From IMG/VR virus record IMGVR_UViG_3300034062_002027: a DNA stretch of 64,000 nucleotides; one strand, 5' to 3'. Positions 2,867 through 63,722 of the stretch are shown here, in pieces. The DNA comes from a virus. Positions within the stretch are counted from its first letter, which is position 1. Every line of letters starts with the position of its first letter. The position numbers were made by a program, and so were the translations under genes. The notes under the pieces were generated by a model that made no database searches, was not told where the DNA came from, and worked only from the letters and a program-made list of their open reading frames with translations.

Positions 2867-5368
2867 TTAGTTCTCCGGCGATTTAGCAGCCGGTCTGTTT
2901 AAACGCTCCATCAGCTTAGCCTGCATCTTGGCGGATGCTTCCTGTTGCTTTTGGCTCATCTTTTGTTCAAACTCCTGCTGACGCTGAGCCATCTCTTGCT
3001 CGTGCAGTTGTCTGTCCATGATCATTTCTTGCTGCATTTTTGCTGCGGCAACCTCCGGGTTCTCGCCCTGACGGTTTGCGGCCTCTTGGGCTTTGAGCTG
3101 AAGTTCTTGCTGGCGGACAGCCAAGTCGCCCTGAACCTTTTGCTCTTTGATTGAGGCGTCTTTCATCTTGATCTGCAGCTCTTGTTGCTGCATTTGGACC
3201 AGTGGGTCTTGGGCTTGTTGCTGGGCTTGCTGCTGAGCAGCCTGACCTTTGCTCTGAGCTAGAACCTGCTGGGATGCTTGAGCAACCAGACGCGACAACT
3301 GAACCTCAACATCCTCTGGCAGGTCTTCATCGGGCTTGGGCATGGGCACGCCCAACTGCTCTTCGACCTTCTTGCGGTAGGCAAATGCCAAGTGCTCTGA
3401 GATGTGGGCCATGATTTCGGCCTGCATCTTTTGCGCTTGTGGGTTCTGACCAATCTGCGCGGCCATCAGGGGGTCTTGCATCAAAGCCATGTGGACTGCG
3501 ATGTGTGCGTCATGGTCTTGGTAGATGAACGCCTTGGTGGGCTTTCCGTTCAGAAATGCCATGTTCTCGCTGACTGGGTCGCGTGGCTTCATGTCATCAT
3601 CAATTGGAACCAGCTTGTCTGCGTTCTTGATTCCCAAGACCTCGATCATCTGACGGTGCAACTGCGGTAGGTCATAGATTTGAGGAGCCTGCGCGGCCAA
3701 CTGAATCACAGCTTGGTACTGCATGATCCGCTGGGCCATTGTGGAGCTGTTTGGATCACTGACCGGGATAACCTCGACCATGTCGTAGTCTTCCCGCTTA
3801 GCCATGCGGTCACCGCCTTGGGGCTCGTACTCGTATTCGCTTGGGGTGTTGTCGCGGATGATTTCCTTGAGCAGTTTAAATTCCTGCTTCATGGCGTAGT
3901 GGACCCGGGCTTGAACTGCGCTCATGGTTTTGAGTTGACGCTCCAGCAACGCCAGAGTTGTGCCGACAGGAGAGTTGGCACTCATGTCGCTGATGTTCAT
4001 ATCAGCGATGGAGCCCAGACGGCGGCCCTCTTCTGTGATGCGGTCAAGCAGAACAGCCAGAACTTGTGACGGCTCCTTGTATGGCAGGGGCATGATGTTG
4101 TCACGCACTGTGCCACCGGGCACGTCCACATCTCGCCATTCTCCGGGAGCGATTGGGGTGTCATCTCCTTTAATCCGCAGACCACGCGACTTCAAGCCAC
4201 CGGGCAGGTTGGACAGAGTTCCTGCGTCCACCAACTGACGGATCAGGGATGTACCCGCACGGGCATAGCCGCCGATCAGGTGGATGTAGCCGAAACCATA
4301 AGCGCCAAAACCGGGTACGTAGTCATACTGAACGAAATGCTGGCGCTTGATTTTTTTCTTGTCGGTCTCGTTCCAGTTACGGTAGACCGACAGAACCTTG
4401 CTGGTTCCCTTGTCGATGGTAACGATGTAAGGAAGAGCAATGCCATCCTTGTCCTCGTACCCGGGCATGTCGTAGTCCACTTGAATCTCAAGGAACTGAT
4501 AACGCTCGTCTTCGGTGACGGAGTAGCCCTGCTCTTCGGCTTTCTTTTTCTCCACATCGTTGTGGATCATGACGGGCTCACCCAGCTCAACATCACGGTA
4601 GAAGCCTGCGACCTGAAGCTTCTTGACATCGTTCTTTGTCTTGCGCATCACATGGGTAACGCGCTCGGCAGAGCGAGCACCCGATGAGCCGTAGGGGATG
4701 ACGATGTCTTCGGCGGGGCAGAAGATGGCTACCTGACGGCCAAGGCCGGGATCGAAGTAAACCTTCTTGAAGGCGGAGCCTGCCAGACCCAAGTTGAACA
4801 GCATGCGCTCATGCTCCGGGCGGTATTCAGGCATGCCGTCAACCAACTGGAAGTTCATGTCGGTGCGGACTCGCTCGGCTGCGTCTTCTTTCAATTTGTC
4901 GATTGCGCCAATGATCTGCGTTTTGACGGGGCCTTGAGCGGGGAAGGTCTCAATGATGGTCTCGGACTGGAAGCGGACTGCGGCTTCTGTCAGGAGGGTG
5001 GAGAAGACGCCACAGGCCCCCGTCCAAGGCTCGGTGCGCTCCTCATACTTCATGCCAAGGACCTCGAGCCCTCGCACATACATCTCTACCCATTCTTTAC
5101 GAGATGAGATGTCAGATTCCACTTCTCCTACCAAGTCAGAGCCAAGCTTTTCAAGCTCACCCTCATCCATAAACTCTGCCAAGTTGGCCTCGAACGACTC
5201 CTCTTCTTCTGGCATAAGGTCGATTGCCATGCCGTCGATGCCGATGATTACATCGTCGGGGTTCTCGATGATGATCTCCACTGCGGGGGTGTCATCTTGA
5301 ATCATGTCTGAGAAATCAATCCCCTCAGGGGCCGGGGAGAGAGACGAAACCATGCTGCTTGTTGCCAT
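2867..5368 (-). CDS. portal protein
   Basis: 833 aa with an AAGGA SD, directly downstream of terL. The size and acidic N-terminus are typical of portals. The last ~140 aa form a Q/E/K-rich coiled coil (QQQAQQQAQ...), reminiscent of a P22-type portal barrel. Confidence 0.8.
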   Translation of the reverse strand: MATSSMVSSLSPAPEGIDFSDMIQDDTPAVEIIIENPDDVIIGIDGMAIDLMPEEEESFEANLAEFMDEGELEKLGSDLVGEVESDISSRKEWVEMYVRGLEVLGMKYEERTEPWTGACGVFSTLLTEAAVRFQSETIIETFPAQGPVKTQIIGAIDKLKEDAAERVRTDMNFQLVDGMPEYRPEHERMLFNLGLAGSAFKKVYFDPGLGRQVAIFCPAEDIVIPYGSSGARSAERVTHVMRKTKNDVKKLQVAGFYRDVELGEPVMIHNDVEKKKAEEQGYSVTEDERYQFLEIQVDYDMPGYEDKDGIALPYIVTIDKGTSKVLSVYRNWNETDKKKIKRQHFVQYDYVPGFGAYGFGYIHLIGGYARAGTSLIRQLVDAGTLSNLPGGLKSRGLRIKGDDTPIAPGEWRDVDVPGGTVRDNIMPLPYKEPSQVLAVLLDRITEEGRRLGSIADMNISDMSANSPVGTTLALLERQLKTMSAVQARVHYAMKQEFKLLKEIIRDNTPSEYEYEPQGGDRMAKREDYDMVEVIPVSDPNSSTMAQRIMQYQAVIQLAAQAPQIYDLPQLHRQMIEVLGIKNADKLVPIDDDMKPRDPVSENMAFLNGKPTKAFIYQDHDAHIAVHMALMQDPLMAAQIGQNPQAQKMQAEIMAHISEHLAFAYRKKVEEQLGVPMPKPDEDLPEDVEVQLSRLVAQASQQVLAQSKGQAAQQQAQQQAQDPLVQMQQQELQIKMKDASIKEQKVQGDLAVRQQELQLKAQEAANRQGENPEVAAAKMQQEMIMDRQLHEQEMAQRQQEFEQKMSQKQQEASAKMQAKLMERLNRPAAKSPEN

Positions 5369-5376
5369 GACGATCC

Positions 5377-63091: not shown

Positions 63092-63625
63092 TTAAGCGTC
63101 AGCAAACGGAGTGACAACAGAGCCAGAGGCCAGCAAAACACCAGTGACCATGTACTTGTTAGCCGCCAAGACAGTCACAGTGATGGTGGAGCCAGCAATA
63201 CCGCCAGTGGTCGAGCCGTCCAAGTTGATGACATCGTTGGTTGCGCCGGGGGCAAAAGCCGTCACTGCGCCAGAGCTGTCGGTGTCAACCATGATAATGG
63301 AGCCAACAAACTTGTCAGTGCCGTTGGTCTTGATAGCCACGGCAGTGGCAGCAGTCTCAATGACAAACGTGTAGCTTGTACCCACGTTGTTAGAGGTGCT
63401 TGGGTCTTGGCCGGGACCAGATGTCACAGGATTGGCTGTGGCATTGATGGTAGGTAGTGTGATGACCAGCGTAGCGTCATTGGTACGAATGGTCTTGCCA
63501 GCGTACGAAGCCACATCCAGAGTCACGGTATTGGTGCCGTTAGCCAGATTGACAATAGAAGCTGGGCCTTGGGTAATAAAGCCAGCCAATGAACGGACTG
63601 GGCCTTGGAAAGTAGTCAGAGCCAT
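63092..63625 (-). CDS. abundant-type virion structural protein (function unknown)
   Basis: 177 aa with a GAGGAA SD. It lies directly after the capsid terminator and is bracketed by hairpins. It has T/A/G/V-rich beta composition. Confidence 0.55.
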   Translation of the reverse strand: MALTTFQGPVRSLAGFITQGPASIVNLANGTNTVTLDVASYAGKTIRTNDATLVITLPTINATANPVTSGPGQDPSTSNNVGTSYTFVIETAATAVAIKTNGTDKFVGSIIMVDTDSSGAVTAFAPGATNDVINLDGSTTGGIAGSTITVTVLAANKYMVTGVLLASGSVVTPFADA

Positions 63626-63722
63626 GATGATTCCTCACATGCGAGTTGAGGCGTCCTGTCTGCATGTCGTCGGCCCGGAGCCGTCAGGAACGCCGGATAG
63701 TCCGGGTTTAAACAAATATACA

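Follow-up and report, generated by a model that had tools for sequence, protein, structure and literature searches.

The DNA considered here is a 64,000-nucleotide stretch of a viral genome (IMG/VR record IMGVR_UViG_3300034062_002027), hereafter called the window, whose genes are those of a tailed phage, with about 30 kb of structural genes following the gene for a large polyvalent protein. The element of interest is an octameric palindrome, GTTTAAAC, that recurs along this DNA both within and between genes. An exact search finds 24 copies, beginning at precisely the 24 positions listed in an earlier note on the same stretch, with none extra and none missing, and GTTTAAAC is the single most frequent octamer of the window.

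Nineteen copies lie in coding sequence, at relative gene positions from 0.17 to 0.99 with none preferred, and five (7122, 10096, 15170, 19540 and 63706) are non-coding. The portal gene (2867-5368, minus strand) carries the copy at 2897-2904, which is read as R-L-N (xGT TTA AAC) and is kept in six of seven aligned relatives. The start of the gene for the large terminase (TerL; 5377-6870, minus strand) is overlapped by the stop of a stand-alone gene (6867-7097, minus strand) for a 76-amino-acid winged helix-turn-helix (wHTH) protein of the LexA type (Pfam LexA_DNA_bind PF01726, E = 3e-8). The copy at 7122-7129 is located in non-coding DNA 25 bp upstream of the wHTH start codon and is kept in 30 of 35 aligned relatives. 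On the other side of this copy lies the small terminase gene (TerS; 7398-8036, minus strand; PHROG 51/1595), and further on the copy at 10096-10103 sits in a non-coding position 19 bp upstream of the ATG at 10122. The plus-strand AAA/MoxR and VWA (CobS/CobT-like) genes together span 10968-14052. Two copies fall in the AAA/MoxR gene (10968-12431), at 11441-11448 (A-F-K-P) and at 11765-11772 (A-F-K-R; kept in 17 of 42 relatives, the rest having unrelated words), and one in the VWA gene (12439-14052) at 13512-13519 (V-F-K-R), which is kept in all 17 aligned relatives. The copy at 15170-15177, between genes 14267-15022 and 15305-15601, is non-coding or part of a small uncalled open reading frame (ORF).

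The T7-gp4-like primase-helicase gene (15880-17574, minus strand) holds copies at 16741-16748 (R-L-N) and 17035-17042 (G-L-N), and the small HNH-like gene next to it (17571-17819/17924, minus strand) holds one near its 3′ end at 17597-17604 (S-F-K-R). Seven base pairs upstream of a tRNA-Met gene (19459-19533, minus strand) is the non-coding copy at 19540-19547. The copy at 19918-19925 (V-F-K-Q) lies in the RusA gene (19655-20089, minus strand), ~190 bp upstream of the divergent gene for a PD-(D/E)XK exonuclease (20110-20967, plus strand), and 24 of 35 relatives have a copy at that same offset. The gene for the Sak single-strand-annealing protein (21228-21908, plus strand) contains the copy at 21778-21785 (G-L-N; kept in eight of eight aligned relatives), and a small ORF (26286-26477, plus strand) contains two, at 26345-26352 (A-F-K-P) and 26455-26462 (S-L-N). 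Five more are in the gene for the 2303-amino-acid polyvalent protein (27395-34306, minus strand), which carries ART and LPD38 domains: 28663-28670, 29492-29499, 31844-31851, 32558-32565 and 32665-32672. The last of these is the final site ahead of a site-poor tail module that starts at 34.3 kb. Beyond it are an isolated copy at 39713-39720 in the gene for a 1557-amino-acid RTX-like structural protein (38031-42704, minus strand), copies at 58069-58076 (gene 57928-58311, minus strand; G-L-N) and 58854-58861 (gene 58311-59015, minus strand; G-L-N), and a non-coding copy at 63706-63713 between genes 63092-63625 and 63772-63960 (both minus strand).

Chance and base composition are ruled out as the cause of this abundance by three kinds of null model. 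The G+C content of the window is 53.4%, not ~55% as previously given, and Markov models of orders 0 to 3 predict 0.73, 0.79, 0.62 and 2.35 copies versus the 24 observed. The earlier expectation of fewer than one copy under a mononucleotide model thus holds, with its rough value of ~0.6 recomputed as 0.73. Dinucleotide-preserving shuffles (n = 100) yield a mean of 0.78 copies (sd 0.87, maximum 3). Synonymous-codon shuffles (n = 300), which permute codons inside each gene of our working gene map and so keep both proteins and codon usage, yield a mean of 1.7 (sd 1.15, maximum 6) versus the 19 observed in coding sequence. Both types of shuffle had been proposed as a check in the earlier note, and both give counts far below those observed. 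A cloning or assembly artefact, such as PmeI linkers, can also be set aside, as the sites lie in frame within conserved genes of independent JGI, ENA, Logan and NCBI assemblies.

The window carries 52 TTTAAA cores, of which 24 have the G..C flanks and another 20 are one outer base away from them (G..T 7, C..C 5, A..C 4, G..G 2, G..A 1, T..C 1), in agreement with the earlier estimates of about 20 such variants and of G..C flanks on about half of all cores. Certain variants are themselves more common than expected: GTGTAAAC and GTTTACAC occur 7 and 10 times outside an unrelated tandem protein repeat (~1 expected per word), with 8 of 15 GTGTAAAC-type copies in non-coding DNA, and ATTTAAAC and GTTTAAAT occur 4 and 7 times (0.3-1.3 expected per word). 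The window total comes to 24 perfect plus about 17 near-cognate copies.

Two repeat regions contribute other frequent octamers. At 50132-53739, tandem repeats of 129 bp (43 amino acids) extend across three neighbouring genes that are richer in A+T and have beta-propeller matches of the Vgb_lyase type. These repeats account for copies of GTGTAAAC and GTGTACAC at 129-bp intervals and are unrelated to the findings on GTTTAAAC. At 38343-39038, nested tandem repeats of 6, 12, 18 and 30 bp in the RTX-like gene give rise both to the frequent octamers GGTGTCGG, GGCGTAGG and GTCGGAGT and to a local GC skew of +0.28.

The excess extends to the relatives of the window, where the earlier note had suggested that the octamer be counted. 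Among 80 IMG/VR loci centred on TerL genes (78-96% identical to that of the window) there are 563 copies in 799 kb versus 11 expected. The non-redundant TerL loci hold 418 copies in 565 kb versus 7.1 (order 2) or 24 (order 3) expected, and GTTTAAAC is again the top octamer. The 52 loci centred on the primase-helicase gene (62-89% identity) have 655 copies in 717 kb versus 10 expected, and in all 52, whose G+C content ranges from 41 to 59%, GTTTAAAC is the most frequent palindromic octamer. These phages are abundant in lake metagenomes, with at least 600 TerL relatives.

Outside this clade the word is at chance level. No close DNA to the window was found in the phage collection searched, and the nearest cultured phages have TerL identities of 45-58%. 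DSL-LC04, 023Pt_psg01 and pelagiphage HTVC027P hold 0, 3 and 1 copies in 50 kb each, and among 80 out-group loci around DSL-LC04-like terminases, many of them sampled by the same lake projects, none has more than one copy. The wide range of G+C content within the clade, together with the absence of the excess outside of it, argues that the phage lineage rather than the host or base composition specifies the word, and that the excess belongs to one lineage of freshwater tailed phages. A search for hosts in a genome collection returned only short contigs of metagenome-assembled genomes, two of which had been binned as Burkholderiales or Burkholderiaceae. The cultured phage closest by genome layout is the Planktothrix phage Pag-Yong1 (L316, OL906435.1), whose TerL is 45% identical. 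Like MinM2, it has the genome layout of our clade, and its genes include those for a polyvalent protein, an Erf/Cas4-like exonuclease, a primase-helicase, VWA plus ATPase, a 77-amino-acid product encoded next to TerL, portal and GroES. Pag-Yong1 has no GTTTAAAC and no excess of the cyanobacterial palindrome HIP1. No DNA polymerase gene was found in the clade when window positions 15880-21908 were compared with L081, L086 and L087, which combines the T7-gp4-like primase-helicase with the small HNH, RusA, exonuclease and Sak genes; the site-free out-group relatives carry a PolA-type polymerase, with primase and helicase encoded separately.

Selection acts on the word itself, at a cost in codon choice and protein sequence. 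A coding copy can be read in two frames, as xxG TTT AAA Cxx (x-F-K-[LPHQR]) or as xGT TTA AAC ([CRSG]-L-N), because the third frame reads GTT-TAA-AC on both strands and contains a stop codon. About 9-10 coding sites use each permitted frame. Therefore, the earlier statement that the word occurs in every reading frame needs correction, and its companion, that the excess is present in both gene orientations, is uninformative for a palindrome. In the window, 10 of 17 [CRSG]-L-N peptides are written as xGT TTA AAC, though TTA makes up 5.7% of Leu codons. Peptides compatible with the word are 2-6 times more common than amino acid composition predicts. Within the non-structural region of the pooled relatives, 60-77% of such peptides are realised as the word, versus 3-4% in the out-group. 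A codon alignment of 81 TerL genes further reveals residue replacements that create sites, as in GVF[QDEN]HP to GVFKHP, EM[YW]KEW to EMFKQW, and DAFKAR to DAFK[QR]R.

Once present, sites are kept about three times better than background octamers. When the window is aligned with its relatives by blastn, 66% of sites remain intact at 75-85% identity, compared with 23% of the remaining octamers of those alignments, and below 75% identity the corresponding values are 30% and 8%. Sites also turn over, as evident by the fact that the orthologous words at lost sites often differ at several positions. The flanks carry information only at -1 (C/T 80%) and +1 (A/G 79%), in a symmetric manner that gives the weak extended form YGTTTAAACR. 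Because nothing further out carries information, the word is compact and symmetric, as would suit a site for a protein, and a longer repeat or mobile element is ruled out. A frameshift signal is likewise rejected: U_UUA_AAC is in phase at about half of the coding sites and out of phase at the other half, and the non-coding copies and strand symmetry indicate a word that matters at the level of DNA. The proposal in the earlier note that selection acts on the DNA word thus survives the null models and is borne out by TTA usage, the TerL replacements, retention and sharing across the clade.

The sites are unevenly distributed along the genome. As noted previously and upheld on recount, the stretch from 7.1 to 32.7 kb contains 19 of the 24 window copies, and that from 39.7 to 58.0 kb contains none (post-hoc binomial P = 3e-4). 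Among relatives, the density is 0.70 sites per kb in TerL-centred loci, with a peak of 2.06 in the kb upstream of TerL, and 0.91 in primase-centred loci, whereas loci centred on a tail-region protein (43715-45622 in the window) have 0.05. Three clade members retrieved via the N-terminus of the polyvalent protein (L310-L312) hold 0, 0 and 2 sites in their tail-side 10 kb and 8, 9 and 8 in the polyvalent gene and early side, a drop that agrees with the 34.3-kb boundary of the window. Along with density, the share of compatible peptides realised as the word declines, from 60-77% in non-structural genes through 24-54% in genes for the portal and head to 7-14% in loci centred on the tail. Because this gap persists at the synonymous level and Leu-TTA usage is equal in both halves of the window, protein constraint and codon bias do not explain it. 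Two explanations remain for the regional pattern: a function tied to that half of the genome, or the history of the modules. Phages L313 and L314 (1-20942), both outside the clade, have tail-side genes 61-64% identical in amino acid sequence to those of window positions 34310-38020 and share only the first ~300 amino acids of the polyvalent protein, so that modules have been exchanged exactly where the density of the word falls.

A conserved arrangement of sites precedes the wHTH gene. In the 53 loci that extend far enough upstream, sites accumulate 235-345 bp ahead of the TerL start, which is 10-50 bp upstream of the wHTH start. One to three sites are present there, often paired at distances of 15-17, 20 or 30-31 bp, and within 250 bp upstream of the gene there are 1.46 perfect sites per locus, mostly within 50 bp. 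Over 120 bp in 79 distinct loci, the conserved order is a CCCCCGGGGG hairpin, TATATATATTTTT, TTGCGAACGTTC, 11 bp, GTTTAAACT, a ribosome-binding site and ATG. The composite (window 7100-7200, minus strand; ~60 relatives) also has a C-rich tract before the CCCCCGGGGG palindrome. Within this arrangement we recognise a sigma-70-type promoter, TTGYGAACGTTC-N11-GTTTAAACT, with the -35 element TTGCGA, a 17-bp spacer and the -10 element TAAACT; GTTTAAACT occurs at the exact spacing in 55 of 77 occurrences of TTGYGAACGTTC. In the window, the -35 element is degenerate, and the site at 7122 reads GTTTAAACT on the minus strand and holds the -10 element (7126 to 7121) of this predicted wHTH-TerL promoter. 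A near-cognate GTTTACAC, as read on the gene strand (7107-7114, minus strand), lies 8 bp downstream with a start-to-start distance of 15-16 bp, and many relatives have a second perfect GTTTAAAC at its position.

The tRNA-Met gene has a similar predicted promoter on the minus strand, with -35 TTGCAG (19567 to 19562), a 17-bp spacer and -10 TAAACT (19544 to 19539) within GTTTAAACT. A GTTTACAC partner (19608-19615) is located 68 bp upstream of site 19540, and this spacing recurs 32 times in relatives. Two conserved predicted promoters thus carry their -10 element inside the word. The earlier note had already placed sites at the -10 of the tRNA promoter, upstream of the wHTH gene and upstream of the gene at 10122, and these are the copies at 19540, 7122 and 10096. 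Sites also occur ~50 bp upstream of TerS (0.53 per locus), and the 300-bp spacer between the TerS and wHTH genes is the densest cluster of sites and variants.

Adjacent to this region, a 780-bp non-coding gap (8037-8816) separates TerS from the divergent early genes. It contains three perfect DnaA boxes (8091-8099, 8119-8127 and 8143-8151; TTATCCACA twice and TGTGGATAA once) and degenerate ones within 90 bp, and is likely to be a DnaA-dependent origin, judging by these boxes. The 9-mer of the DnaA box occurs ~100 times in the pooled TerL loci, and in L101, L104, L034, L038 and L107 two DnaA boxes directly abut GTTTAAAC upstream of the wHTH promoter. A different arrangement is found in L307 (positions 2379-2514; GCA_009712145.1, VFSW01000507.1), where three copies of GTTTAAAC, 67 and 61 bp apart and with the longer shared context GCGTTTAAACGTTAT, form an iteron-like array that the window lacks. 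It occupies a gap of non-coding DNA at the primase-helicase 3′ end.

Two small proteins encoded by these phages are candidates for reading the word. The wHTH protein is the leading one by virtue of its position. Its AlphaFold model (pLDDT 79) has as best fold matches in Foldseek the LexA-DNA complexes 3JSP and 3JSO (TM 0.82, rmsd 1.2 Å), and with 1LEA the range is 0.80-0.82. The family assignment is partial: the DNA-binding domain of LexA is present, and the C-terminal S24 domain for self-cleavage and dimerisation is absent from the 76-residue protein, which ends 10 residues past the wing. The second candidate is a 107-amino-acid ribbon-helix-helix (RHH) protein (23012-23335, plus strand), recognised by an N-terminal beta-alpha-alpha pattern and by homologues that carry PF12651 RHH_3, and present in seven of seven full-length relatives. 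RHH dimers typically read a site of ~8 bp, as with MetJ and Arc, and on structural grounds this candidate would fit an 8-bp palindrome better. Upstream of the RHH gene there is no perfect site, and variants occur at 0.59 per locus. Both families were found only in this clade. A LexA-like protein that is 35% identical occurs in Synechococcus phage Ssp-JY39, whose genome has no copy of GTTTAAAC. No methyltransferase or restriction-type domain was detected with Pfam or PHROGs in the about 50 window ORFs scanned, the polyvalent protein included.

One lineage within the clade has lost the full word. Loci L018 (1-16734), L019 (1-13725) and L120 (1-12709), which belong to a high-G+C sublineage, contain 28, 14 and 18 TTTAAA cores, of which 0, 0 and 3 belong to full sites, with 1.8 RTTTAAAY per kb. 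The cores of L018 are almost all ATTTAAAC, GTTTAAAT or ATTTAAAT, and ATTTAAAC is the top octamer of that locus. Comparison with sister lineages reveals orthologous G-to-A changes, for example a synonymous GCG-to-GCA change at a TerL site. Because the full octamer is purged while the core is retained, the core appears to be worth keeping. The simplest reading would be that these phages encounter a restriction enzyme specific for GTTTAAAC and have disarmed each copy by the smallest change that keeps the core; the word is the recognition site of PmeI/MssI. Restriction pressure on these phages is real, as evident by the strong avoidance of G+C-rich 6-bp palindromes in the window: GGCGCC occurs once versus 37 expected, CAGCTG 0 versus 32, TGGCCA 4 versus 30, CTGCAG 6 versus 27 and GCCGGC 0 versus 20, and GGTACC, AGATCT and GAGCTC are each absent versus ~12. 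A switch in wHTH specificity in the word-purged lineage is ruled out, since its recognition helix (SKANVHRIVHKL) differs from that of site-rich relatives (SKANIHRIVHKL) only by an I-to-V change. The most divergent wHTH helix is found in L073, a single short locus with no site in 3.3 kb.

From these observations, we favour a reading to which we assign a probability of about 0.45, namely that the copies of GTTTAAAC would be dispersed, operator-like sites for a DNA-binding protein encoded by the phage. Accommodating a binding site is the best supported of the roles proposed in the earlier note, given that conserved site pairs overlap the -10 element of the wHTH promoter, whereas its suggestion of a nick site finds no support and that of a modification target is neither favoured nor discounted by the lack of methyltransferase domains in the ORFs scanned. 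The word is a cis-acting one that a clade of freshwater tailed phages creates and keeps by selection, with GTGTAAAC/GTTTACAC and ATTTAAAC/GTTTAAAT as tolerated near-cognates. Under the proposed mechanism, it would be read by a clade-specific phage protein, for which the wHTH protein encoded between TerS and TerL is the better candidate by position and the RHH protein the alternative. When bound at the sites of the wHTH-TerL and tRNA-Met promoters, this protein would occlude the -10 element as at a classical operator, probably in an autoregulatory manner. The other 20-40 copies per genome, mostly within packaging, replication, recombination and polyvalent-protein genes, would form a dispersed secondary array that may silence or roadblock transcription of the early half of the genome, or coat and organise it.

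Several considerations weigh against this explanation. Most sites (19 of 24) are within genes at no preferred position, unlike known operators or stoperators, the dispersed repressor sites of certain mycobacteriophages. LexA-type domains usually read half-sites ~12 bp apart and form dimers via their C-terminal domain, and an 8-bp palindrome better suits an RHH dimer or an enzyme of the restriction or modification type. In addition, a 10-bp palindrome, CGAACGTTCG, lies over the -35 element of the wHTH promoter, resembles the GAAC/GTTC half-sites of LexA and could be the real wHTH target. The subclade of L020, L021, L026 and L029 has no site at the wHTH promoter and a normal density elsewhere. 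Since neither candidate family was found outside the clade, co-occurrence with the word amounts to one phylogenetic event and provides no independent test. The non-clade phage L314, which shares the tail-side genes, has no site in 21 kb, so tail modules circulate among site-free phages and the regional pattern could reflect module history. Finally, binding by either candidate is itself a prediction.

It is quite unlikely, in our estimation, that the word is instead an epigenetic or restriction-modification element, a phage analogue of HIP1 targeted by a host methyltransferase or an undetected phage one, so that methylated copies would help to time replication, control packaging, tell strands apart or mark the DNA as self, like Dam/GATC at P1 pac and oriC. 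Type II enzymes recognise exact palindromes of this kind, here of 8 bp and with hardly any information in the flanks, and HIP1 offers the precedent of an octameric palindrome tied to orphan methyltransferases (PMC5861425, PMC4390886). The lineage that purges exactly the full octamer implies that enzymes of such specificity exist in some hosts, and sites cluster beside DnaA boxes in several relatives. However, the window ORFs scanned reveal no methyltransferase domain, the excess tracks a phage lineage whose G+C content spans 41-59% and is not seen in out-group phages of the same lakes, and it stops abruptly at a module boundary inside one genome. Nor would a strict 8-bp enzyme explain the enrichment of near-cognates that differ at an outer base. 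We place in the same low range a packaging or replication signal, in which the word would be an element for the small terminase (pac) or an origin-binding protein and the scattered copies would be secondary pac or loading sites by which phage DNA is marked against that of the host. The density of sites in the TerS-wHTH-TerL spacer, including those just upstream of TerS, would fit such a role, as would the DnaA boxes abutting GTTTAAAC in five loci, the DnaA-box cluster at 8091-8151 and the L307 array beside the primase-helicase gene. If packaging runs from pac through TerL, the site-rich half would also be the last packaged and the first injected. Known pac and ori sites, however, form single local clusters, whereas here about one site per kb is spread through 26 kb of coding sequence, and the sites in the polyvalent gene, at a distance of 20-25 kb from TerS, equal in density those close to it.

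A neutral drive, in which biased repair or gene conversion (very-short-patch type or endonuclease-initiated) turns near-cognates into GTTTAAAC with no benefit to the phage, would explain the creation of sites, their apparent conservation and the use of rare codons, and the phage does encode a recombination set consisting of the PD-(D/E)XK exonuclease, Sak, RusA and the small HNH protein. We regard it as very unlikely. In the case of Vsr of E. coli, the precursor word is depleted, whereas here single-base neighbours are not depleted, outer transition neighbours are 4-10 times enriched and GTGTAAAC/GTTTACAC ~10 times. Within the same genomes, regions of similar codon usage are 5- to 10-fold apart in how often compatible peptides are realised as the word, the boundaries of site density are sharp, and with the sole C at an outer position, repair of deaminated 5-methylcytosine could fix at most that base. 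The ends of homology blocks are also not associated with sites (5.3% versus 4.5% of random positions within 30 bp). The same comparison, which is a weak test, speaks against the word as a marker of recombination or mosaic junctions (16.6% versus 14.1% within 100 bp). Least probable of all is that the copies are a class of promoters or RNA polymerase-binding sites with the word supplying the -10 element TAAACT. Two conserved predicted promoters do have this form, with a proper -35 element at 17 bp, but away from promoters the flanks that complete the hexamer are depleted, with A at -1 in 28 of 418 sites (7%) and T at +1 in 65 of 418 (16%), both below background. A TTG-type -35 element at 16-18 bp, on either strand, accompanies only 5 of the window's perfect and variant sites. 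Most copies are therefore not promoters, and most are intragenic, at arbitrary positions and strand-symmetric.

Comparison with known systems helps to place the word. HIP1 (GCGATCGC) is an octameric palindrome of cyanobacteria that is 15-300 times over-represented and conserved, lies inside and between genes, and has a function that was long unknown (PMC5861425). GTTTAAAC is likewise a perfect octameric palindrome whose excess in the window (24 versus 0.6-0.8 for orders 0-2) falls within the 15-300-fold range, whose sites are kept above control octamers, and whose related genomes hold variant words. It differs from HIP1 in sequence (GCGATCGC occurs 0 times in the window), in belonging to a phage lineage rather than a cellular phylum, in covering ~40% of a genome rather than a whole chromosome, and in having no cognate methyltransferase domain among the ORFs scanned. 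The likeness to HIP1 drawn in the earlier note is therefore apt, while the one to uptake sequences is weak. Unlike Chi and DNA uptake sequences, GTTTAAAC is a palindrome without orientation, and its excess tracks a phage lineage and one genome domain.

Stoperators of the cluster A mycobacteriophages L5, Bxb1 and TipsytheTRex are sets of more than 20 13-mers, located in promoters and mostly in short gaps between genes, whose reader is the immunity repressor (PMC9283540). Those that overlap promoters act as operators, and the repressor silences a large part of the phage genome; the sites are asymmetric, oriented with transcription and bound by a two-domain monomer (PMC9283540). The phages studied here similarly have more than 20 copies of one word over the genome, two of which overlap conserved -10 hexamers. 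A stoperator network would therefore be the nearest functional precedent, although GTTTAAAC lacks its asymmetry, orientation and intergenic location: it is palindromic, its flank preferences are symmetric and 79% of the copies are inside genes. In addition, the candidate repressor is here known by position only, and these phages carry no evidence of a temperate lifestyle.

SlmA-SBS, Noc-NBS and MatP-matS are systems in which palindromes of 12-14 bp in the coding DNA of one chromosomal domain are read by a small HTH protein. They resemble the present case in having palindromic sites in coding DNA, with one domain rich in sites and another poor, and differ in being cellular and linked to cell division, with longer sites and only modest enrichment. 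We know of no phage example of such domain-marking arrays. The PmeI/MssI restriction site has the same 8 bp, and the L018/L019/L120 lineage avoids exactly this word in the way that phages avoid restriction sites. Such sites are normally lost by phages, whereas this clade accumulates GTTTAAAC 30-60 times above expectation; the word is enriched in all but that one lineage, with its 0-3 full copies. We found no report of GTTTAAAC as a phage genomic motif in the literature searched, and to our knowledge genome marking in the manner of HIP1, Chi or SlmA has not been described for any phage.

A broader notion, which we consider unlikely, is that the word is a 'self' signature written by the phage at ~1 copy per kb into the half of its genome that holds the early, replication and injected-protein genes. 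If true, a small phage protein would recognise, coat, silence or protect phage DNA as distinct from host DNA, at a cost in protein sequence and rare codons and in conflict with restriction enzymes that cut GTTTAAAC, for which the lineage with an outer-base mutation in every copy would be evidence. The word would then be the viral equivalent of such marking in HIP1, Chi or SlmA systems.

Selected, highly iterated palindromes are known from cyanobacteria, and many-copy repressor sites from one group of mycobacteriophages; here, a different word has the same statistical signature in an uncultured clade of phages. It provides a clean case of selection at the DNA level overriding protein sequence. 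Its function is made testable by the sharp domain boundary, by the promoter copy beside a tiny LexA-type gene and by the existence of a natural escape lineage. The word could also serve as a lineage marker for binning these phages, and it offers a way into the question of how phages organise part of their genome or keep it silent.

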